Of a stretch of DNA of 64,000 bases, positions 19,207-64,000 are shown piece after piece. Below the pieces are notes generated by a model that was given only the letters and a program-made list of their open reading frames with translations, ran no database searches and was not told where the DNA came from. A program made the translations under genes and the position numbers. Source of the DNA: Bacilli bacterium. Its GTDB lineage: Bacteria > Bacillota_I > Bacilli_A > RF39 > UBA660. Location: assembly GCA_017612805.1 (NCBI GenBank), contig JAGAFD010000008.1:41413-105412 (forward strand), given 5' to 3'. The number at the start of each line of letters is the position of its first letter. The stretch's first letter is position 1.

Positions 19207-19229
19207 CGTAATAGAGAGTAGGTTTTTTG

Positions 19230-19781
19230 ATGGATTATAATAGAGAAAAGAATGGTAAAAGAACCTTATTAATTGCTCTTAGCTGTTGCTTAATGATTTT
19301 AATTGCGGTTGCATCTTCATATGCTTATTATATGACACAATTAAATGTCCATGAACCACAATCAGTAATTATTAAAACTAAAGAGTTAGGAATTATTTAT
19401 AATGATGGTAAATCAATTGTTTTAAATAACGCTTTACCTGGTCAAACAATTATTAAAACTATAACAATTCAAAATACTGGTAATATGACAATGAGTTATG
19501 ATATAAGTTTTATTGATGTTGTTAATGAATTTAGTAATACAACGGATTTAGTATATAGTGTAGTGGGTGATAGTAATACGCCGACGGTTAATCCAGCAAT
19601 TAGTAATGCCACTTTTCCAGTTGCTGCTGGTACAATACTAAATGATGTAAATATTCCAGCTGATGGGCTTCATACTTATACGATTACGCTTACTTATTTA
19701 AATCGTGATGAAAGTCAAAATGTTGATATGGGAAAAATGCTTTCAGCAACGCTTAATGTAACGGATATTAAAGAAGTGTAA
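19230..19781 (+). CDS. Secreted protein with a TasA/camelysin-like (SipW-cognate-type) signal region
   Basis: Basic N-terminus, a TM segment, then AVASSYAYYMTQ, which resembles the ...G(T/S)YA(Y/F)F(T/S)D signature. The downstream beta-rich part contains LPGQTIIKTITIQNTGNMTMSY. Confidence 0.4.
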   Translation: MDYNREKNGKRTLLIALSCCLMILIAVASSYAYYMTQLNVHEPQSVIIKTKELGIIYNDGKSIVLNNALPGQTIIKTITIQNTGNMTMSYDISFIDVVNEFSNTTDLVYSVVGDSNTPTVNPAISNATFPVAAGTILNDVNIPADGLHTYTITLTYLNRDESQNVDMGKMLSATLNVTDIKEV

Positions 19782-25923: not shown

Positions 25924-27669
25924 ATGAATAAGAAGGGCTTTATGTTTGCTGAAACAATCATTGTTATAACGGTTTTAATCACGGCATTATTATTGATATA
26001 TGCTTCTTTTATTAATGTCTTAAATAATGAGAAAAAACGTGTTTATTATGATGATGTAGCTTATATATATCGAACTATTTATTTAAAAGACTTTTTTGAA
26101 AAGAATAATACAGCCGTTTTATTTGAAGGGGTTAATGAATCGGGTATTATTCGTTTTAATTGCGGCTATCAAGGATTTATTGATGATTATGGAGTATCTG
26201 GAGTTAATACTTCAGCTTTCTGTGAGTCATTATTATCTTCATTACATGTCGATAATTTATATATGACTAATTATAATATTAGTGACTATAAGAGTTGTCC
26301 AAACTTTGTTGATCATCATACTACTTTAACGGTTTCGGCTATGTGTCGTCGTTTGGAAAATATGATGGATGATAATACTTATGGATATTTAAAAACGTTA
26401 CGTAGTTATGGTGATGATAGTAAAGCAATTTTAGGTTATCGTATTATTGCAGTTTATAAAAATACGGTTTTAAATAAACAATTATGTGCTGGAACTAATT
26501 GTCAAGAACAAACTTATGTTGAGAATTACTTTGGTTCATTAAAAGTTAATGAAATTCATGCCGAAAATAAAGTTAAAAACGTTGTTGTAAATATTACTAA
26601 TGGTTCAACGGCGGTTAAAGATATTAATATTGTTGCTGGTCGTAAGTTACAAATGAGTGTTTCAGCTAGTAGTGGATACAAAACGTCTAATGCTGCAATA
26701 TCTTGTACGAATGGTCAAACGGGAACGATTTCTAGTGATGGTAAATATTTTGTTATCAATAAAGTTACGAATAATTCTGTTTGTACGGTGGTATTCCCAC
26801 CAACATGCTCAACTGCATTAAATACTACTTGGGATTTTAGTTATACGGGAGCATCACAAACTTTTACGGCACCTTGTCGTGGATCTTATCAAATTGATTT
26901 ATATGGTGCTCAAGGTGGTAATTCTGGTGGTAAGGGTGCTTATACAACCGGAACAATTAATATTGATGCTAATCAAAAATTCTATTTATTTATTGGCGGA
27001 ACCAATGGCTATAATGGTGGTGCTGCGGGTGGTATTTATCAATATGATAGTAGCGGTGGTGGAGCGTCTGATGTTCGTTTAGCTAACGATATTAATAATT
27101 TAAACTCTCGTATCATGGTTGCTGCTGGTGGCGGTGGAGCTTTAATTAATGGCTCACTAAAAGCCGGTGGTGGTAATGGTGGTGCAGTATACGGTGGTAG
27201 TGGCGGTATTAAATTCTATGATAATGGTTGCGGTACCGAATATGTTATGTGTACGGCATGTGACTCTACTTCGCTTGGTGATATTACTTGTGCTTCTGGT
27301 GATGATTGTGGTTGCATTTCCCGTAAAAATGCTGGTGGAAATCAAAGTAAAGGCGGAAACGGAGTTCACTTTATGAAATATAAAGCGGCTAATACTTACA
27401 CGTTATCATCTTCAGCTGATGGTAAATTTGGTTTTGGTGGCAGTCCAGGTGGTGGCGGTGGCTTCTACGGTGGCGGTGGAGCAATTATCGCAGGTAATGT
27501 TTATTATGGCGCTGCCGGAGGATCATCTTGTATTAATGGTAGTTTAAATGTTATTGAAAACCAAGTTGATTGTTCAACTAATACTTTTAAATTTAATGAT
27601 ATTACCCTTACTGCTGGTAATAATACCGGAAATGGTAAGGCAACAATTAAATTAATTAGTTCTTATTAA
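25924..27669 (+). CDS. Type IV prepilin-leader protein with a divergent InlB B-repeat-like module and a large glycine-rich C-terminal domain
   Basis: MNKKG|FMFAETIIVITVLITALLL has Gly at -1, Glu at +5 and a hydrophobic helix. The middle module ends NSVCTVVF. The C-terminal half carries FSYTGASQTFTAP..GSYQIDLYGAQGGNSGGKGAY, FYLFIGG, GGGASDVRL and RIMVAAGGGGA, as in bacterial glycine-rich domain proteins. Confidence 0.7.
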   Translation: MNKKGFMFAETIIVITVLITALLLIYASFINVLNNEKKRVYYDDVAYIYRTIYLKDFFEKNNTAVLFEGVNESGIIRFNCGYQGFIDDYGVSGVNTSAFCESLLSSLHVDNLYMTNYNISDYKSCPNFVDHHTTLTVSAMCRRLENMMDDNTYGYLKTLRSYGDDSKAILGYRIIAVYKNTVLNKQLCAGTNCQEQTYVENYFGSLKVNEIHAENKVKNVVVNITNGSTAVKDINIVAGRKLQMSVSASSGYKTSNAAISCTNGQTGTISSDGKYFVINKVTNNSVCTVVFPPTCSTALNTTWDFSYTGASQTFTAPCRGSYQIDLYGAQGGNSGGKGAYTTGTINIDANQKFYLFIGGTNGYNGGAAGGIYQYDSSGGGASDVRLANDINNLNSRIMVAAGGGGALINGSLKAGGGNGGAVYGGSGGIKFYDNGCGTEYVMCTACDSTSLGDITCASGDDCGCISRKNAGGNQSKGGNGVHFMKYKAANTYTLSSSADGKFGFGGSPGGGGGFYGGGGAIIAGNVYYGAAGGSSCINGSLNVIENQVDCSTNTFKFNDITLTAGNNTGNGKATIKLISSY

Positions 27670-27905: not shown

Positions 27906-28523
27906 ATGAATAATAAAGGTATGACACTAGCGGAAATTATTGTTAGTGTGGCTTTAATTTCGATCGTTTTAATATTCTTAATGAAATTACTTACAACCTT
28001 ACGTTATGATGAGAATTTTACTAATTATGAAAAGAATAATGCAATTAATCGTTCTGAAATAATTAAAGCAGTGCAAACGGATTTAATGACTTATCAATTA
28101 TTTGATTTAAAAGATGAATCAAATTCAGTATCTGGTACTGGTAAAGCAGTATTACACTTTGTTTATGCTGATACTGATCGTACTAATCGTTATTTGGTAA
28201 TTGAAAGTGCTAAGATATCTTATTGTGCAACTACCAGTTGTAATGGGGCAAATGATCGCATTTGGGTTTTAAATAAGAGTAAAGCGGATGTTACTTACGT
28301 AACAGATTGTATTAAATATGATTATGATATAACTACTAGTAGTCAATATTATTGGTTAAAATTGGTGGTTAAACTAGATAGTAAAGGCGCCGTTGATAAT
28401 ACTATTGATGATATTGAAATCTTCTATTTAGGGGAAAAAGGAGCCGACTTTAATAATTCCCATATTCCACAACCAAGTGATTTATATTTGGGTAAACATA
28501 CTAGTGGCGCATGCACAAATTAA
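27906..28523 (+). CDS. Type IV prepilin-leader (pseudopilin-like) protein, 205 aa
   Basis: MNNKG|MTLAEIIVSVALISIVLIFL (Gly -1, Glu +5), followed by a small Cys-containing globular domain. GAAGG RBS. Confidence 0.65.
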   Translation: MNNKGMTLAEIIVSVALISIVLIFLMKLLTTLRYDENFTNYEKNNAINRSEIIKAVQTDLMTYQLFDLKDESNSVSGTGKAVLHFVYADTDRTNRYLVIESAKISYCATTSCNGANDRIWVLNKSKADVTYVTDCIKYDYDITTSSQYYWLKLVVKLDSKGAVDNTIDDIEIFYLGEKGADFNNSHIPQPSDLYLGKHTSGACTN

Positions 28524-31244: not shown

Positions 31245-31303
31245 TAAAATGATAGCTATCTGCTAGAATTTGTTTTATAATGATTATGATAGGAAGTGTA
31301 CTT

Positions 31304-31831
31304 ATGGATTTTAGAGATATCGTAGAATTTTTTAAAGACGCTTTTAAATACATTGCTGTTGTCATAGTAGTATTATTGTTATTTATTTTTGTAATGGGAT
31401 TGCAACAAATAGTTGGTCCATCGATGGAACCTAATTTAAAAGAAGGCGATATCTTAATCGTTAATAAACTTTTATATCATATTGGTAAAATTAAACGTAA
31501 TGATATTGTAGTAATTACCGAAGAAGAAAAATATATGGTAAAAAGAGTGGTTGGCCTTCCGGGAGAACATATTGAATATAAAGATAATTACGTTTATGTT
31601 GATGGGGAAAAATATCGCGAAACATTTATTGATACTGAGAAAGTAAAAACTGAGGATTTTAAGTTAGAAGATCTCGGTTATGATAAGATTCCTGAAGGGA
31701 TGTATTTAGTATTAGGGGATAACCGTGAGAACTCAAAAGATAGTCGTGATTATGGTTTAGTTCCTAAAAAACAAATTGTTGGTAAAGCTTGGCTTAGAAT
31801 ATGGCCTTTTAATAAAATAAGATTTTTTTAA
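31304..31831 (+). CDS. lepB: Signal peptidase I (bacterial LepB/SipS type)
   Basis: GPSMEPNL (Ser box), VKRVVGLPGE (Lys box) and GDNRENSKDSRDYG. AGGAAG RBS before ATG 31304. Confidence 0.88.
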   Translation: MDFRDIVEFFKDAFKYIAVVIVVLLLFIFVMGLQQIVGPSMEPNLKEGDILIVNKLLYHIGKIKRNDIVVITEEEKYMVKRVVGLPGEHIEYKDNYVYVDGEKYRETFIDTEKVKTEDFKLEDLGYDKIPEGMYLVLGDNRENSKDSRDYGLVPKKQIVGKAWLRIWPFNKIRFF

Positions 31832-32017: not shown

Positions 32018-32036
32018 AGAAAAAGGAGTGTTTTTG

Positions 32037-34523
32037 ATGAACAAAAAGGTAATTTTTGGTACTGCAATATTCATTATCGCTGGTTTATTTATGTTTACAT
32101 TTGCCAACCCTAATGAAAAAGTATCAAAAGAAAAGGCTTCTAAACAAACTGTTAAAGAAGTCAGCAATGAGACATCCAGTGAAGAGTCTAAGAAAGAAGA
32201 AACTAAGAAGGAGGAGGCTACTAGCACAAATACTTCTACAACTACAACAAGAAGAACTACTGCTAGAAGAACTACAACTACTACAACTACTACAACAACT
32301 ACAACTAATCCAGTTGCACCAGTTGTAAATCCAGTTGTACCTCAAACACCAGCACAAGAAACATTAGTAAACCCAACTAATACTAATAATGATGCTGAAG
32401 ACAAAGCTAAGAAGGAAGCTGAAGAATTAGCTAACTACAAAGAAGCAGCAAAGAAAGAATTAGCTGAATATAAAAAGGATGAAAATTATTCAGATATCAA
32501 TACTGCTGCTGTAACTACTATTAAAACTGATGGTAGTGATGCAATTGATGCAGCTAAGACTAAAGATGAAGTTGATCAAGCTTTACAAGATGCTAAAGAT
32601 TTAATTGATGCTCTAGATACTGAAGCACCAGTTCTTACTATCGCTGATGATGAAGTAGTATATCAAAAAGTTGGTAAAGCTAATTTAAATAACTACACTG
32701 TAACTGATAATGTATCTTCAAAAGATAAAATTGTTGTTACTATTAGTGTTACTAAAGATGGCAGAAAAGTTAATGAAGTAAACTACAATTCGGTAGGTAC
32801 TTATGCGGTTTCATATACTGCTACTGATGAAGCAGGTAATGTTGCAAAAGCTGTTTTAAATATTAAGGTTAAAGCTGTTAAAGCTGAAAGCTTAGTTTTA
32901 ATGGCTGATGGTGAAGATGTAACTAATGTTACTGATTCTTACTGGGTTAATGACCCTGTTAAAACAATTAGTGTTTATGTTAAATATAATAATGGATCAA
33001 CTAAAAAGTTAAGCAAAATGAATTGTAATGCAGCTTTATTCATCTGCATTGGTGATTATACTGAAACCGGTATTTTATCAACTGCTCATGAAACATTTGG
33101 TAATGCTACGGTAACTTATAGTTATAAAGGTTTAACAGCTAAATATAATTACAATGTTAAAGCTAAAAAAGTAATTTCTTTAACGGTTACGGGAAACAAA
33201 GCTGAATACTTCCAAAATGAAGCATTTGGTATTACGGTTACTGCTAAATGGAATGATAATACTGAAGAAGTAGTTACTAACTATAGGATTGCTGGTAATA
33301 CTAAAAATGTTGGTAAAAACCAAACAGCATTAATTACTTATGGTGGCTTTACAACAACATTTAAATATAATGTTATCGCAAGACAAATTACATCACTTGT
33401 TGTTACATTAAATAAAGATACCTATATTGCTGGTCAAAACCTTGACATTAAAAGCGTTGTAGCTAAATGGAATGATAATACGGAAGAAGTAGTTAATGGT
33501 TATACTGTTAATGCTAATACCAATAAGATTGGTAATCACACTGGTTATGTTACATACAAAGGTATTAATGGAGAATTTAATTACAAAGTTATTCCAAGAA
33601 GAGTATTATCTCTAGAAGTTACTGGAAATAAAGCTACATATATTCAAAATGAAGCATTTGGTATTACAGTTAAAGCTAAATGGAATGATAATACGGAAGA
33701 AGTAGTTACTAATTATTCAATTAATAATAATACTAAGACTGTTAAAAATCATCAAACTGCAGTAGTTAGTTATGGTGGTGCAACAACATCATTTACTTAT
33801 GATGTTATTGCTAGAAAAATTACATCTTTACAAGTAACTTTAAATAAAGATACTTATGTAAAAGGTCAAAAAATCGATATTAAGAGCGTTGTTGCTATAT
33901 GGAATGACGGATCTGAAGAAACAATTACTAAATACTCAGTTAGTGGAAATACTAATGTTGTAGCTAATAACCAAAAAGGTTATGTTACTTATAATGGTAT
34001 TAAAGGTGAATTTAAGTATAATGTAATTGAGAAAAAAATTGTTTCATTAAGTGTTACTGCACCTACTAATGACTATATTAAAGGTGATAAATTTAATCTT
34101 ACTGTAAAAGCTAAATGGAATGATGGTTCTGAAGAAGTAGTTACTAATTATACGGTTAGTGGAGATACTAATAAAGTAGGCCTTGACCAAACAGCAACTA
34201 TTAGTTATAAAGGTGTTACTGCTACATATACATATGATGTTAAACATGAATTGCATTTAGTTCATTCTTGGTTTACTGCTGATTACTATCTAGAATTTAA
34301 AGATAGTGTTAACGTAGCAAGTATTGTATATTACAATAAAAACGGTGGAAGTAGTGATGTACCTTTAACTCGTATTCAAGGTAAGAAAATTTATATTAAT
34401 CCAACAATCTATGCTTTCTTACATAATATGGATGGAACTAATAGTAATGAAAAACTTGTTGTAACTATTTATGAAAATGGTAAGAAAGTAAGTTATACTT
34501 ATAAAAAAGCTATTAGTGATTAA
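32037..34523 (+). CDS. Secreted surface protein/adhesin: Thr-rich linker, helical region, DUF5011/HYR-like Ig domain and about 6 Big_3-like Ig repeats
   Basis: Signal peptide (MNKKVIFGTAIFIIAGLFMFTFA|NP) and a TTTTRRTTARRTTTTTTTTTTTTN tract. DTEAPVL...VGTYAVSYTATDEAGN module. Repeated ...VTAKWNDNTEEVVTNY...VG..Q.A.ITYGG....F.Y.V units. No LPXTG motif seen. Confidence 0.75.
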   Translation: MNKKVIFGTAIFIIAGLFMFTFANPNEKVSKEKASKQTVKEVSNETSSEESKKEETKKEEATSTNTSTTTTRRTTARRTTTTTTTTTTTTNPVAPVVNPVVPQTPAQETLVNPTNTNNDAEDKAKKEAEELANYKEAAKKELAEYKKDENYSDINTAAVTTIKTDGSDAIDAAKTKDEVDQALQDAKDLIDALDTEAPVLTIADDEVVYQKVGKANLNNYTVTDNVSSKDKIVVTISVTKDGRKVNEVNYNSVGTYAVSYTATDEAGNVAKAVLNIKVKAVKAESLVLMADGEDVTNVTDSYWVNDPVKTISVYVKYNNGSTKKLSKMNCNAALFICIGDYTETGILSTAHETFGNATVTYSYKGLTAKYNYNVKAKKVISLTVTGNKAEYFQNEAFGITVTAKWNDNTEEVVTNYRIAGNTKNVGKNQTALITYGGFTTTFKYNVIARQITSLVVTLNKDTYIAGQNLDIKSVVAKWNDNTEEVVNGYTVNANTNKIGNHTGYVTYKGINGEFNYKVIPRRVLSLEVTGNKATYIQNEAFGITVKAKWNDNTEEVVTNYSINNNTKTVKNHQTAVVSYGGATTSFTYDVIARKITSLQVTLNKDTYVKGQKIDIKSVVAIWNDGSEETITKYSVSGNTNVVANNQKGYVTYNGIKGEFKYNVIEKKIVSLSVTAPTNDYIKGDKFNLTVKAKWNDGSEEVVTNYTVSGDTNKVGLDQTATISYKGVTATYTYDVKHELHLVHSWFTADYYLEFKDSVNVASIVYYNKNGGSSDVPLTRIQGKKIYINPTIYAFLHNMDGTNSNEKLVVTIYENGKKVSYTYKKAISD
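33171..34250 (+). repeat. In-frame tandem repeat: a 432-nt two-domain unit in 2 full copies plus one extra half unit
   Basis: Units start at 33171 and 33603, exactly 432 nt apart, with long identical stretches (for example caaaatgaagcatttggtattac, gctaaatggaatgataata). A third A-type module runs from 34035 to about 34250. Confidence 0.8.
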
Positions 34524-59308: not shown

Positions 59309-60550
59309 ATGAAAAACGTACATACAATTGATGTTGAATTAACTAAAGAAGAATGGAGCGAATGCTTAGATAAAGCGTTCAAAAAACAAAGCAAAGAAGT
59401 TAAAATTGATGGTTTTAGAAAAGGTACCGCTCCTAAAGATATGTTCATTAAAAAATTTGGTATTGAAGTGTTATATAATGACGCAGTTGATGAAGCCATT
59501 AATTTAAAATTTGGTAAAGCAATTGTTGATTCTAAATTAATTCCAATTATTGAACCTAAAATTGATATTAAAAAGATTAGTGATACTAATTTTGCATTTA
59601 CTATTACCGTTATAACTAAACCAGAAGTTAAATTAGGGGAATATAAAAACTTAAAAGTTAAAAAAGAAACTGCTAAAGTTACTAAAGAAGAAATTGATGA
59701 AGAAATCAAAAATTTAAGAAATCAATATGCTGAAATTAAACCTAAAACTGAAGGAAAGATTAAAGCTGGTGATACTGCTGTTATTGACTTTGAAGGTGTT
59801 GTTGATGGTAAAGTTTTAGATGGTGGTACTGGTAAGAATTATCCTTTAGAAATTGGTTCTAACACATTTATTCCTGGCTTTGAAGATGGTCTAGTTGATA
59901 TGTGTGTTAACGAAGAAAAAGAACTTAATTTAAAATTCCCAGAAAACTATACTGAAGAATTAAAAAATAAAGATGTTACATTCAAAGTAAAAGTAGTAGA
60001 TATTAAAGAAAGAGTATTACCTGAAATGAATGAAGATTTCTTCTTAGATTTAGGTATGGAAGATGTTAAATCTGAAGCTGATTTAAAGAAACATATTGAA
60101 GAAGAAATCAAAAAACATAAAGAAGCTCATATTGAAGATGAATATGTTGAAGCTTGTTTAGATAAAGCTTTAAAGAATGCGAAGATTGAAATTAATGAAG
60201 AAATTATTGATGAAGAAGTTCATCGTATGATTCATCAATTTGAAGAACAATTAAAAATGCAAGGTTTAAATATGGAACAATATGCCGCATTTACTGGTAT
60301 GACTCATGAAAAAATGCATGAACAAATGGAACCTGAAGCTAAAAAGCGTGTTGGTTATCGTTTCTTAATTGATAAAGTTGCTGAAACTGAAAAAATTGAA
60401 CCAACTGATAAAGAAGTAAAAGAACATCTTAAAAAATTAGCTTCTGATTACGGAACTACGGAAGAAGAAATCACTAAAATGTATGGTGATTTAGAAGTAG
60501 TTAAATATGATTTAAAAATGTATAAAGCTATTGATGTTATTAAAAGCTAG
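59309..60550 (+). CDS. tig: Trigger factor
   Basis: N-terminal ribosome-binding GFRKGTAPK (GFRxGxxP) and an FKBP domain (DFEGVVDGKVLDGGTGKNYPLEIGSNTFIPGFEDGL). Confidence 0.92.
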   Translation: MKNVHTIDVELTKEEWSECLDKAFKKQSKEVKIDGFRKGTAPKDMFIKKFGIEVLYNDAVDEAINLKFGKAIVDSKLIPIIEPKIDIKKISDTNFAFTITVITKPEVKLGEYKNLKVKKETAKVTKEEIDEEIKNLRNQYAEIKPKTEGKIKAGDTAVIDFEGVVDGKVLDGGTGKNYPLEIGSNTFIPGFEDGLVDMCVNEEKELNLKFPENYTEELKNKDVTFKVKVVDIKERVLPEMNEDFFLDLGMEDVKSEADLKKHIEEEIKKHKEAHIEDEYVEACLDKALKNAKIEINEEIIDEEVHRMIHQFEEQLKMQGLNMEQYAAFTGMTHEKMHEQMEPEAKKRVGYRFLIDKVAETEKIEPTDKEVKEHLKKLASDYGTTEEEITKMYGDLEVVKYDLKMYKAIDVIKS

Positions 60551-60567
60551 ATATCTAGCTTTTTTTA
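60542..60567 (+). terminator. Intrinsic terminator after tig
   Basis: AAAAGCTAG-atat-CTAGCTTTT followed by a T-run. Confidence 0.65.
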
Positions 60568-60589: not shown

Positions 60590-60598
60590 TGTTATAAT
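60590..60598 (+). promoter_or_regulatory. Extended -10 promoter element (TGTTATAAT)
   Basis: TGtTATAAT, with TTGCTT 18 nt upstream as a weak -35. It lies 28 nt before ATG 60626. Confidence 0.45.
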
Positions 60599-60625
60599 AA
60601 CTGTATGGTATAGGATAGTGATGAT

Positions 60626-63600
60626 ATGAAGAAAAATTATAAAGGATTTACTTTAACAGAGATGCTAGCTGTTATCGTTATATTAGGAGTTATTGCCTTA
60701 ATTGCGATTCCGTCTTCCTTTGCAATATCTGCACGTATCCAAATTCGTATGTATTGTACGAAAATTGAAGGTATTATTAAAAGTGCTGAATTATATGCTG
60801 ATGACCATTTTGATGAGATTAAATTAGGAATGATATCGAGTGTATCGGCTAAAGATTTAGTTGATTATGGTTATCTTAAAAAAGATGAGGGTGCTCCATC
60901 AGGGGTTTATTTAATGGATCCTCGTGATAATTCTAAAAACTTGGATGCTTATACCTTTAAATTAACGATTTCTAATAATCGTGCTAAAGCTAATTTAAAT
61001 CAAGAAAATTATCACTTTTTATGTGGTGAAGATAAATTAAAAGATAATAAAGATCCTTCATGTTTATATAAAGGTGAATCAACTACTTGGACCAAAAACA
61101 ATCGTACGATAACGATTTCTTGTTATGATGTTGGGGCAGGATGTAAGAGTGCGGATGTTACTAAAACTTTTAGTACTACTACTAAAACATCTAGTTATAG
61201 TGCAACGGTTAGAGACTGGGTAGGTAATACTTTTAGTTGTTCAAAAACATTAAATGTTTATGTAGATAAAACGGCACCAACTTACCAAATCACTGGTGAG
61301 GCAAGTTCGGCTACCAATTGGTCAAATAAAAGAACTATTATTGTTAAATGTGTTGATAATGATTCAGGATGTGTTACAGAAGATCAATATTTCTATTATG
61401 GTTTAAATGCATCTGATAGTTCTAAACGTAATGTTAATACCGAAGATATTACTTTTACGGTTAAAGATAAAGCCGGTAACTCTAAGAGTTATACCGTTAA
61501 TGTTAAAGTTTATACGGATGTTGATAATCCAACTTGTAGTTATAGTGGTGAATCAACTACATGGACCAATGAAAATCGTTCTGTTCAAATAACTTGTAAT
61601 GATTCTCGCAGTGGCTGTAAAACTGCTTCAAGATCAATTACTATTAATACTTCTCAAGCTACTGAATTATTAAATTTTGTTGCTCAAGATAATGCTGGTA
61701 ATCAAACTGATTGTACTAAAACCTTAAATATTTATGTAGATAAAACAGCCCCTCAAATGGGAACTGTTACCCGTTCTGCAGATACAACTACTATTCCAGT
61801 TACGGATAATGCGGCATTAAAGAAATATGAAATATATGATTCTTCTGATGTTAAAGTAGCATCGGGAAATTTAAGTGGTACAAGTGCAAATATTTCTTTT
61901 GTTCAAAGAACGTCAGGTACTTATAAATTAAAAGTTTATGACGTAGCAACCAATGTATTAACGAAAAACTTCACTGTACCACAACTTAAAGTAACTTTCA
62001 AAGTAAATAATGCTAGTTATGGTAGTGTTACTAATGGTTCTAAGAATGCTGATTATGGTTCTGATGCATCAACAACTTTTACAGCAGCAACTGGTTATCA
62101 TTATGCTAGTGTTTCAGGAACGGGTTGTTCAGTATCAGGAACCACCGTTACAGCAACTAATGTTACGAATAATGTAACTTGTACTGTTACTTTTGCGATT
62201 AATACTTATACGGTTTCATTTAAATCAAATAATACCGGAATGGGTACCGTTACGGATGCTTCAAAAACAGTTAATCATGGTTCTAGTGGTGAAACAACCT
62301 TTACTGCTAAGTCTGGTTATAAATATTCAAGTGTTTCAGGAACGGGTTGTACAGTATCAGGAACTACGGTTACTGCTTCAAATGTAACTGGTAATGTAAC
62401 TTGTACGGTTACCTTTACCACAATTCCTTATACAATTACTTATAATTTAAATGGTGGTTCGGTAGCAACAGCTAACCCAACTTCTTATAATGTTGGTACG
62501 GCCGCATTTACCTTAAATAATCCAACAAAGACTGGTCATACTTTTGCGGGATGGTCTGGAACGGGATTAACTGGAACTACCAATACTTCGGTAACTGTTG
62601 CTAAAGGTTCAACCGGTAACCGAACTTATACCGCAAACTGGACCGTTAACAATTATAAATTAGATTTAAACGGTTTACTTGATGGTACTGCTGGTGGTAA
62701 TATTTCTGGTTATGGTACGGCGGACGTTTATATTAATGGTACTTTAAAATCAAATGATGCTGCCGATTACTGTACGGAATGGCCTTATGGTACAACTTAT
62801 GAAATTAAGGATATCAAAGCTACCGTTGGTCATAAATATGAAGGAGTTTCTGCTGGTGCTACTAGTGGTACAATTGGTGCTGGAAATGTTTCCGTTCAAT
62901 TAAAATTTTCAACAAAGAGTATTACATGTACTGCTGGAAGTTATTTACCGGCTAATAAAGATGCTTGTGCAACTTGCGAAGCTGGTTATTATTGTCCTGG
63001 TGGAACATGGACATATAATGGTAACTTAAGAGGACGTGGCCAATGTCCAGCTGGTTCTTATGCTGCTGCTGGTAAGAGTGCATGTACGGCTTGTCAAGGT
63101 AATACTTCTACTGCAGGAGCAAGTTCATGTGGTACATCATGTGGTAAATCTAACGTAGCTTCATGGAATACTGCTTCTTGGAGTTCATCAAATAATACTG
63201 TTTCAAATGTATGTAGTATTAAAACATGTAAGAGTGGATTTACTTTACAAAGCAATACTTGTGTTGATAAAACGGCACCAACCGTTCCATCAACTTTCCA
63301 ATTATATAATCCAGTTATTAAAAATGGTTCTGCTTCATTTAGTTTAAAAGCTGCCGGATCAACAGATGCAACTACCATAACATATCAAGTTTATATTAAT
63401 GGTAGTTGGAAAAATATGTCTGGTGGTATATATAATGGTACTTTAAGTAAAGGTCAAGATTACTGGATGTATGCACGTGCTTGTGATACTTCAAGTAACT
63501 GTTCTGGTAATTCAATCGGTATTCATATGGCTCCTAAAACCTTATATATCTGGCAATTATATCAATACATGCGTTCTATTGATGGTTCAACGATTATTGG

Positions 63601-63898
63601 TCAACCAAGTGATAATGAAATTGCTGTTAATATGGGTAATGCTAAGATGGCTCAAAATGCGAAGAATATGTATATGTCTACCGAAGCTAAGACCTATTGG
63701 AATAATTTAGGTGCGACCCAAACCGTTAGAAACTTATATCGTGGTATCTTAGGTCGTGATGCTGATTCTGGTGGATTAACTAACAATACATCTTACTATA
63801 ATACCAATGGTTTAGAAAGAACTTTATTAATCTTTGTTAACTCAGATGAAGCTCAAGCAATCTATAATTATTGGGGTATGGGAACTGGTAAACTTTAA
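60626..63898 (+). CDS. 1090-aa multidomain protein with a type IV pilin N-terminus: Ig/OmpL47-like modules, InlB B-repeat modules, a Cys-rich module and a DUF4214-like tail
   Basis: MKKNYKG|FTLTEMLAVIVILGVIALIAIP is the classic GFxxxE pilin helix. Three ...GESTTWT..NR...I.C.D..SGC...YVDKTAP modules follow. Two modules end NVT.NVTCTVTF. One Listeria-Bacteroides-type repeat (YTITYNLNGG...TGHTFAGWSG...YTANW). CxxGxY...CxxC Cys-rich repeats. The C-terminus has LYRGILGRDADSGGL. Confidence 0.75.
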   Translation: MKKNYKGFTLTEMLAVIVILGVIALIAIPSSFAISARIQIRMYCTKIEGIIKSAELYADDHFDEIKLGMISSVSAKDLVDYGYLKKDEGAPSGVYLMDPRDNSKNLDAYTFKLTISNNRAKANLNQENYHFLCGEDKLKDNKDPSCLYKGESTTWTKNNRTITISCYDVGAGCKSADVTKTFSTTTKTSSYSATVRDWVGNTFSCSKTLNVYVDKTAPTYQITGEASSATNWSNKRTIIVKCVDNDSGCVTEDQYFYYGLNASDSSKRNVNTEDITFTVKDKAGNSKSYTVNVKVYTDVDNPTCSYSGESTTWTNENRSVQITCNDSRSGCKTASRSITINTSQATELLNFVAQDNAGNQTDCTKTLNIYVDKTAPQMGTVTRSADTTTIPVTDNAALKKYEIYDSSDVKVASGNLSGTSANISFVQRTSGTYKLKVYDVATNVLTKNFTVPQLKVTFKVNNASYGSVTNGSKNADYGSDASTTFTAATGYHYASVSGTGCSVSGTTVTATNVTNNVTCTVTFAINTYTVSFKSNNTGMGTVTDASKTVNHGSSGETTFTAKSGYKYSSVSGTGCTVSGTTVTASNVTGNVTCTVTFTTIPYTITYNLNGGSVATANPTSYNVGTAAFTLNNPTKTGHTFAGWSGTGLTGTTNTSVTVAKGSTGNRTYTANWTVNNYKLDLNGLLDGTAGGNISGYGTADVYINGTLKSNDAADYCTEWPYGTTYEIKDIKATVGHKYEGVSAGATSGTIGAGNVSVQLKFSTKSITCTAGSYLPANKDACATCEAGYYCPGGTWTYNGNLRGRGQCPAGSYAAAGKSACTACQGNTSTAGASSCGTSCGKSNVASWNTASWSSSNNTVSNVCSIKTCKSGFTLQSNTCVDKTAPTVPSTFQLYNPVIKNGSASFSLKAAGSTDATTITYQVYINGSWKNMSGGIYNGTLSKGQDYWMYARACDTSSNCSGNSIGIHMAPKTLYIWQLYQYMRSIDGSTIIGQPSDNEIAVNMGNAKMAQNAKNMYMSTEAKTYWNNLGATQTVRNLYRGILGRDADSGGLTNNTSYYNTNGLERTLLIFVNSDEAQAIYNYWGMGTGKL
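61985..62422 (+). repeat. Two tandem 72-74-codon modules with DNA-level similarity inside the giant pilin-like gene
   Basis: agtgtttcaggaacgggttgt.cagtatcaggaac...aatgtaacttgtac.gtta.cttt occurs twice, about 221 nt apart (near 62108 and 62329). Confidence 0.7.
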
Positions 63899-63904
63899 TA
63901 GATA

Positions 63905-63934
63905 AGAAAAGATAGTAATATCTTTTCTTTTTTT
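63905..63934 (+). terminator. Intrinsic terminator after the giant pilin-like gene
   Basis: AGAAAAGATA-gtaa-TATCTTTTCT followed by T6. Confidence 0.7.
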
Positions 63935-64000
63935 GTGTAAAATTATGTCAAAATTGTAGACAATAATTAAATTTTCTTTATAATAACTAATTAGTTGGTG

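Follow-up and report, generated by a model that had tools for sequence, protein, structure and literature searches.

A 1090-residue modular prepilin and its relatives in uncultured low-GC gut Bacilli

The window analysed here, a whole stretch of 64,000 nucleotides of Bacilli DNA with 27% GC, encodes at positions 60626..63898 (all coordinates are window positions unless stated otherwise) a 1090-residue protein that begins MKKNYKGFTLTEMLAVIVILGVIALIAIP and in which a type IV pilin module carries a long multidomain passenger. The open reading frame is exactly as reported in a preliminary description made from the sequence alone, and the gene is real and conserved, since the identical protein occurs on eight contigs from several samples; its nearest relative, P0001, is 96% identical. 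We consider the protein to be, with moderate confidence, a minor modular pilin that is cleaved by a prepilin peptidase and serves as an adhesin on a type IV filament. A tip or minor pilin adhesin had already been proposed, and the complete pilin with its long multidomain passenger fits all the evidence. The protein is placed by homology searches in a family of hundreds, 600-2590 residues long, in uncultured low-GC gut bacteria. This giant family is an extreme form of the established modular pilins, set apart by scale, by a four-Cys stalk module, by dispersed monocistronic paralogues and by strain-level mosaicism. The unprecedented size that the preliminary description had implied is too strong a claim, as modular pilins are established (PMC8179133) and the protein is one of many. 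The coding sequence and its parts are as follows.

60626..63898, + strand: giant modular prepilin coding sequence, ATG start, 1090 amino acids (aa), 115 kDa
60626..60646, + strand: class III leader MKKNYKG, aa 1-7; cleavage predicted after Gly7, PF07963 and TIGR02532 above cut-off
60647..61045, + strand: mature pilin module, aa 8-140, with an α1 helix that ends near residue 60, a small β-sheet head and the Cys44/Cys133 pair
61052..61753, + strand: three tandem four-Cys immunoglobulin (Ig)-like modules, aa 143-218, 217-301 and 301-376
61754..61981, + strand: Ig/FN3-like β-sandwich, aa 377-452; all-β in the AlphaFold2 (AF2) model with a predicted local distance difference test score (pLDDT) > 90, no Pfam match
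61982..62425, + strand: two divergent InlB B-repeats, aa 453-600; PF18998 at 37 bits, above its cut-off of 23.6, in two stretches of a segment scan
62426..62650, + strand: Listeria-Bacteroides repeat (Flg_new), aa 601-675; PF09479, 34.9 against 27 bits, and TIGR02543, 39.2 against 20.95 bits
62651..63271, + strand: central segment of low pLDDT, with β-rich aa 676-767 and a 12-Cys module, aa 768-882
63272..63535, + strand: FN3-like β-sandwich, aa 883-970; AF2 strands 890-968, pLDDT 65-88
63536..63895, + strand: DUF4214-like tail, aa 971-1090; PF13946, 24.1 against 23.2 bits (segment scan), helical in AF2

Judged by profiles and predicted structure, residues 1 to about 135 are a complete pilin module of normal size. 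The N-terminus, MKKNYKG/FTLTEMLAVIVILGVIALIAIP (the slash marks the predicted cleavage site), scores above the curated cut-offs of both PF07963, the prepilin N-terminal methylation motif (29.2 bits against 21.2), and TIGR02532 (26.3 bits against 16.3), which bears out the class III signal with Glu+5 that had been read from the sequence. Among 72 relatives F8 (Phe+1) and E12 (Glu+5) do not vary, the conservation of G7 (Gly-1) is at least 90%, and mature residue 1 (Phe1) of solved pilins aligns with F8. The AF2 model, built on the 72-sequence family alignment, has a helix at residues 10-60, strands at 101-124 and a head that extends to about residue 132, with pLDDT of about 80-88, and a separate model of aa 1-142 agrees with the full-length one on the helix and the β head. 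The head is predicted to be pinned by the Cys44-Cys133 pair. This pair is also present in a stand-alone 139-aa pilin encoded in a relative's genome, which is 41% identical over aa 3-133 (E = 3e-23). When a profile of the module was compared with the PDB, all 22 matches were type IV pilins or pseudopilins, and those to Streptococcus sanguinis PilE1 (E = 4e-11) and Neisseria PilE run past the helix, to profile position 99-103.

The same helix holds the protein to the cell. An LPXTG-like motif is absent from the 1090-aa protein and the sole hydrophobic segment is aa 5-40, so that the pilin helix is the only anchor; the combination expected of an LPXTG adhesin, namely a C-terminal LPXTG motif, a hydrophobic segment and a basic tail, is lacking.

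The passenger of about 950 aa is joined to the pilin module's C-terminus by a short linker, and the whole protein comprises about 11 modules. No off-diagonal matches appeared when the protein was compared with itself by BLAST, and the repeats were delineated by a custom hidden Markov model (HMM), which scores the three four-Cys modules at 90.8, 48.6 and 88.2 bits in order; their pLDDT exceeds 90. Three Cys-containing Ig-like modules had thus been recognised correctly, and the ending YVDKTAP that had been given to all of them belongs to the first and third, the middle one ending in YTDVDNP. Their earlier assignment to OmpL47 is without HMM support: there was no OmpL47 model among the NCBIfam matches, and DUF7743 (22.7 bits against 27), HYR (16.9 against 21.7) and Big_3_3 (14.8 against 27) all stayed below cut-off, although the DUF7743 cut-off is narrowly passed in some relatives.

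Most of the remaining architecture was as expected. The modules at aa 377-452 and 883-970 are β-sandwiches in AF2, in keeping with their Ig/FN3-like and FN3-like labels, and Foldseek matched the FN3 domain 1k85 somewhere in the full model. Both divergent InlB B-repeats, the single Listeria-Bacteroides repeat and the DUF4214-like tail, the last just above threshold as a segment, have the HMM matches listed above. Of the further β-sandwich and the Cys-rich module predicted for the central segment, the β-rich character and the cysteines are there, whereas neither aa 676-767 nor aa 768-882 has a significant HMM match and pLDDT is low; candidate labels tried for them, DUF7601 for the former and Ephrin-receptor-like or cEGF for the latter, were below threshold. 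Residues 145-600 form in the model a tandem β-sandwich array with pLDDT > 90. The Foldseek matches of the full model are generic tandem-Ig adhesins only, specifically the extender regions of MpIBP (4p99), SiiE (2yn3) and GhpA (9flw), with E values of 2e-7 to 5e-6.

A homology search with the 1090-aa protein gave 581 matches, and about 105 of the top 120 homologues are 600-1700 aa long with a prepilin N-terminus. A scan of genome contigs with the whole protein yielded passenger-domain matches only, in metagenome-assembled genomes (MAGs) of Clostridia. The pilin-module profile alone retrieved 12,361 representative clusters at E <= 1e-10, and the best 150 of these, to which the following length and motif counts refer, are distributed by length as follows.

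Below 170 aa: 45 clusters; 170-300 aa: 26; 300-500 aa: 18
500-800 aa: 33 clusters; 800-1200 aa: 24; at least 1200 aa: 4

Thus, 41% of the closest clusters reach at least 500 aa and 28 of the 150 at least 800 aa, the longest having 2,590 aa, and many pilins of 104-160 aa carry the same module. From this spread it follows that one pilin module is found as an ordinary pilin as well as in the role of carrier. The motif GFxxxE is kept in 149 of the 150, with leaders of 3-8 residues.

The four-Cys Ig-like module, about 76 aa long, is by its distribution a family-specific signature, nearly exclusive to prepilin carriers: 618 copies were found in 143 proteins (1-14 each), 133 of which have the strict prepilin motif, and the few family members with genuine Sec-type signals look quite different. 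As an independent check, Joint Genome Institute (JGI) metagenomes were scanned with the four-Cys module alone, the 72-sequence family alignment being too diverse for this purpose. The scan returned 43 loci, in samples of human gut, sheep and rumen, and a prepilin signal starts 26 of the 32 open reading frames (ORFs) with an assessable N-terminus. We found no paper describing the giant-pilin family in the literature; a paper on a TANB77 'conserved pilin' concerns an unrelated Tad-type cluster. In NCBI the members are named 'type II secretion system protein', 'prepilin-type ... domain-containing protein' or 'hypothetical protein'.

As a separate observation, domains known chiefly from animals occur on several of the prepilin carriers, including thrombospondin type 1 (PF00090, PF19028, PF19030), HYR (PF02494) and the ALK/LTK glycine-rich domain (PF12810); P0059, P0071, P0074, P0104 and the protein encoded at L078 18438-20327 are among the carriers.

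Comparison of close relatives suggests that the passengers change independently of their carriers. Two human-gut strains, represented by contigs L043 and L078, have PilC proteins that are 100% identical, and their DNA is 97.8% identical up to about 140 nt inside a giant-prepilin gene, after which there is no similarity. At this same position the two strains encode different giant prepilins, one of 771 aa in L043 (8756-11071) and 629, 168 and 640 aa in L078 (18438-21488). Among the closest relatives of the 1090-aa protein, identity is 60-80% in the stalk modules, up to 90% at the FN3 end and up to 80% at the DUF4214 end. The variable cassette, aa 601-882, comprises the Flg_new repeat and the central segment and has only 18-37% identity in relatives whose flanks are 60-90% identical. 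Conversely, aa 516-787 are 56-58% identical between proteins whose pilin modules are only about 30% identical. Against the 96% relative it is the DUF4214-like tail that changes fastest (85% identity). Passenger cassettes have, from these alignments, evidently been swapped between carriers.

The gene lies alone between tig and lon. The preliminary description had called it monocistronic, with its own promoter and with terminators on both sides, and the signals read or computed around it agree with this:

60542..60563, + strand: intrinsic terminator of the upstream tig (terminator scan; 9-bp stem followed by a T-run, -6.5 kcal/mol)
60590..60598, + strand: extended -10 element TGTTATAAT, read from the sequence, a consensus match only
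60612-60615, + strand: Shine-Dalgarno sequence AGGA, 3' of the extended -10 element
63898..63938, + strand: terminator-like AT-rich hairpin and T-run past the stop codon (-12.5 kcal/mol, z = -4.68)

The extended -10 element was not listed by a promoter hexamer scan, there being no good -35, and none of 200 shuffled sequences was as stable as the post-stop hairpin. Gene content throughout the window is housekeeping (cell-wall synthesis, translation, DNA repair), and lon, mutS, nusB and xseAB follow beyond the window end. The downstream flank also encodes a Peptidase_S55 protein, which we read as SpoIVB, the sporulation protease. Together with the cell-wall synthesis genes this makes the host a walled and probably spore-forming bacterium.

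The window holds further genes of the same or of a related kind, including two prepilin genes that had been overlooked earlier, which brings the number of prepilin genes in the window to three:

25924..27669, + strand: second modular prepilin, 581 aa, MNKKG/FMFAE..., with an ALK/LTK glycine-rich domain (PF12810, 93 bits)
27906..28523, + strand: small prepilin, 205 aa, MNNKG/MTLAE... (PF07963, 21.7 bits; TIGR02532, 18.0 bits)
79-1461 of the window, + strand, and 7300-9988 of L030: comEA (SLBB/HHH_3) and comEC (Competence and Lactamase_B), at and just before the window start

From comEA and comEC, a DNA-uptake apparatus is probable in the host; neither comG nor comC was seen in the sequence inspected.

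Other surface-related elements of the window stand apart from the prepilins. About 40 nt separate a c-di-GMP-I riboswitch (RF01051; 31907-31989, + strand; 69.8 bits, E = 1e-11) from a downstream ORF at 32028-34523 (+ strand) for an 831-aa protein without a Pfam match. This protein combines a Sec-type signal or anchor with a Thr-rich linker and seven or more tandem Ig-like repeats of about 90 aa, and is probably a surface adhesin under c-di-GMP control. Additionally, a 184-aa protein has a weak, sub-threshold likeness to TIGR04090 (SipW-dependent biofilm matrix; 18.5 against 60 bits), and a type I signal peptidase (Peptidase_S26) is encoded 12 kb from it, the positions of the pair being 19227-19781 and 31280-31831 (both + strand).

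The absence of a pilus ATPase, platform protein or prepilin peptidase near the gene, which the preliminary description had reported, extends to the whole window and about 10 kb on either side (about 84 kb), where no T2SSE, T2SSF or Peptidase_A24 match was found; tblastn probes for PilB, PilT, PilC and PilD and a scan for the motif GxGD[VI]K likewise gave nothing in the window. In all, the search for machinery covered about 47 distinct places and about 0.9 Mb of sequence. All examined homologues lie outside pilus operons, a point on which the novelty of the finding had been said to depend. On long contigs they stand between housekeeping genes, such as ftsK and engB, a U32 peptidase gene and the RNase J gene, or an NlpC and a U32 peptidase gene, and the closest stand-alone small pilin gene lies between engB and engA. 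One contig of a rumen MAG (L031, 5760-23375) has six prepilin genes in 23 kb beside gyrB and gyrA, encoding proteins of 670, 683, 1124, 1034, 184 and 747 aa, two of them with the ALK/LTK glycine-rich domain, and there are no assembly genes at this locus. A PilB- or PilT-type ATPase was found at none of the 43 JGI metagenome loci.

The motif scan and the tblastn probes detected machinery only in L043 and L024. The former, a human-gut contig of 30% GC, encodes at 312-2566 a T2SSF platform protein (180 bits) and a prepilin peptidase (A24_N_bact and Peptidase_A24), 6-8 kb upstream of the 771-aa family member and separated from it by six housekeeping genes. In the wider context given by L078 and L079, a 659-aa T2SSE ATPase is found a further 10 kb upstream, and its neighbours encode two small pilin-like proteins, a membrane protein and a PDZ-Lon_C protease; the T2SSF of this related lineage has 495 aa. 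The block next to the ATPase is syntenic with 25.9-30.4 kb of the window (blastp E = 2e-11, 5e-7, 2e-4 and 3e-49): the 581-aa prepilin is the homologous counterpart of a 198-aa pilin-like gene beside the ATPase and the 205-aa prepilin is syntenic with a 202-aa gene, whereas the window has no ATPase upstream of this block. The filament machinery of the related lineage is itself fragmented (L078 1-12261 and L043 312-2566), with T2SSE and the two small pilin-like genes at one site, T2SSF with the peptidase 10 kb off and unrelated genes between the two sites. The missing assembly genes near the 1090-aa gene are therefore a trait of the lineage rather than evidence that machinery is absent.

Several points nevertheless weigh against assembly of the protein into a filament. 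Apart from the species of L043 and L078, the other family loci have no peptidase, ATPase or platform gene within 10 kb, just as there is none in the 84 kb around the gene itself, and the one relative for which machinery is shown encodes a family protein with about 30% identity to the 1090-aa protein. Foldseek found no significant match in the PDB for the isolated pilin module, so that the pilin fold rests on secondary structure and sequence profiles. Finally, no pilin this large, with 115 kDa and a folded passenger, has been shown in a filament, and there is the mechanical question of how such a subunit assembles and crosses the Gram-positive wall.

In the mechanism that we consider probable, Sec would insert the protein, with the N-terminal half of α1 (α1N) as membrane anchor, and a PilD-type peptidase would, as the conservation of the motif suggests, cut after Gly7 and probably N-methylate Phe1. 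The pilin module would then be pulled from the membrane and docked into a filament, which would be built by a PilB/PilC-type machine whose genes lie elsewhere in the genome. In filaments, the partner of Glu5 is the N-terminal amine of the next subunit above, and tip complexes have a cap subunit that is without Glu5 (PMC10191384); the giant family, in which Glu5 is invariant, differs from such caps. The invariant residue thus points to docking beneath another pilin, neither as a cap nor as a mere membrane anchor, whether within a tip complex or at sparse positions on the shaft. The thin Ig-like stalk may reach tens of nanometres outward, where the variable central cassette and the distal modules would bind gut ligands and so act as the adhesin. 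At the level of the lineage, scattered genes with their own promoters and mosaic passengers would amount to an exchangeable repertoire of pilus-displayed adhesins.

Much of the same evidence can be accommodated without a long pilus. The protein could be cleaved by the prepilin peptidase and then held in the membrane by α1N or in a short pseudopilus stub, its Ig-like stalk of tens of nanometres spanning the wall and presenting the distal domains, and the prepilin route would be a general means of anchoring in place of sortase and LPXTG, in function comparable to the archaeal proteins with class III signal peptides. The dispersed, monocistronic genes with many paralogues (three in the window, six in the rumen locus) are in line with this, as are the lack of co-localisation with assembly genes, the helix as only anchor and the large share of pilin-module carriers of at least 500 aa; moreover, a stalk able to cross the Gram-positive wall would make a filament unnecessary. 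We regard this as possible but doubtful, since what has been kept is a whole pilin head homologous to stand-alone pilins, and not the leader alone. The invariant Glu+5 has a role in the literature in filament docking rather than in cleavage (PMC10191384), and the characterised modular pilins are filament-borne (PMC8179133).

The filament in question could also be the Com pilus, with the protein as an accessory pilin that is handled by ComG and ComC and serves DNA uptake or Com-pilus targeting. This would agree with comEA and comEC at the window start, with a weak, N-terminal-only NCBIfam likeness to ComGC, ComGD and ComGE, and with the reported vertical inheritance of comG in Erysipelotrichales (PMC12786226). 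The equivalog scores, however, are all far below cut-off (ComGC 24.4 against 75 bits, ComGD 19.1 against 70, ComGE 21.2 against 49). ComG-type components are smaller than PilB-type ones, and the machinery of the relative, with its T2SSE and T2SSF of the lengths given above and a peptidase that bears A24_N_bact, is PilB-sized. The passenger, too, is adhesin-like, and HMM and structure searches detected no DNA-binding domain in it, so that a role in the Com pilus appears improbable. Most improbable of all is that the N-terminus is a prepilin look-alike and serves as a plain, uncleaved type II signal-anchor of a Sec-exported adhesin: it would suit the lack of a peptidase gene in the inspected part of the host genome, but a generic anchor does not easily account for the conservation of Gly-1, Phe+1 and Glu+5 in hundreds of relatives that have diverged, the module has genuine pilins as homologues, a complete A24 peptidase is known from a relative, and the family members with true Sec-type signals are of a different appearance.

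Compared with known systems, a pilus-displayed adhesin is closest to the modular pilins, of which more than 1,200 proteins in 264 architectures have been described, the largest noted having 860 aa and coming from Candidatus Falkowbacteria (Raynaud et al. 2021, PMC8179133). The 1090-aa protein falls within their definition by having PF09479, PF18998 and PF13946 domains downstream of the pilin module; location in a pil operon, a trait of the characterised cases and no part of the definition, is not shared by its gene. The InterPro census of modular pilins (PMC8179133) likewise combines IPR012902 with domains that are not specific to pili and notes multi-domain cases, and the giant family is longer, as the share of close clusters with at least 800 aa indicates. 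As most family modules are without database signatures, a signature-based census would miss most of the architecture.

Experimentally, PilB and PilC of S. sanguinis have been shown to be pilus-borne modular adhesins (PMC8179133). They resemble the 1090-aa protein in their class III signal with Glu5, small pilin module and short linker (PMC8179133; PMC9934059), as well as in grafted adhesive domains that are not pilus-specific, a monoderm host and a proposed role as pilus-presented adhesin. They have, however, one extra module and about 50 kDa, and are encoded inside the pil operon and once per genome, whereas the present protein has about 11 modules, 115 kDa, a solitary gene and a family-specific four-Cys stalk, and its family is multi-paralogue, mosaic and up to 2,590 aa in length.

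CofB of enterotoxigenic Escherichia coli (ETEC), TcpB of Vibrio cholerae, ComZ of Thermus and GspK of type II secretion are also pilin modules with extra β-rich domains. Their length is about 330-550 aa, and their genes belong to their own operons. All sit at the tip and there start assembly or serve as adapters (PMC8179133). The PilC/PilY1 tip adhesins of type IVa pili share with the 1090-aa protein the principle of a large modular adhesin on a type IV pilus, with a variable effector on a conserved carrier (PMC8179133), but PilY1 is a non-pilin whose β-propeller docks on the minor-pilin complex, whereas here the carrier is the pilin itself.

Two other groups resemble the family in part. MpIBP, SiiE and GhpA share with the model of the 1090-aa protein a predicted rod of tandem β-sandwich domains. 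They are secreted by type I systems, stabilised by Ca2+ and anchored in the outer membrane; the present protein instead has four Cys per Ig-like module and a pilin-helix anchor in a monoderm. The second group consists of the archaeal non-pilins with class III signal peptides, such as the sugar-binding proteins of the Sulfolobus 'bindosome'. Like the giant family, they include many diverse extracellular proteins per genome, with a prepilin-type N-terminus and dispersed genes. What they share among themselves is the signal peptide, without a head, whereas the giant family keeps the whole pilin head and Glu5. The suggestion of the preliminary description that the leader might be used merely as an export route of the archaeal kind is weakened accordingly, by a module homologous to stand-alone pilins and by the invariant glutamate; the 1090-aa protein, with a complete pilin module, is not a substrate with the signal only.

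The usual view of type IV pili is that of one major pilin and a handful of operon-encoded minor pilins. If the reading as a pilus-displayed adhesin is true, commensals that are uncultured but abundant in the human and ruminant gut use a pilus as the scaffold for a large and fast-evolving set of adhesins of 600-2,590 residues, and the idea of the modular pilin is pushed far past the characterised 50-kDa cases. We tentatively suggest, as a wider possibility to which we give less than even credence, that the type IV filament pathway may be the main surface-display platform of a clade of uncultured low-GC gut Bacilli. In such a system one dispersed PilB/PilC/PilD machine would serve dozens of independently transcribed giant pilin genes, whose passengers would be reshuffled by recombination, with the conserved 5' region (signal and α1N) as its anchor. 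The outcome would be strain-specific adhesin repertoires, that is, a 'pilin display library' in the role that sortase and LPXTG play elsewhere. The four-Cys and pilin modules can be used to annotate hundreds of entries now named 'hypothetical' or 'type II secretion system protein', and the strain-variable cassettes are candidate determinants of host and substrate specificity in gut colonisation.

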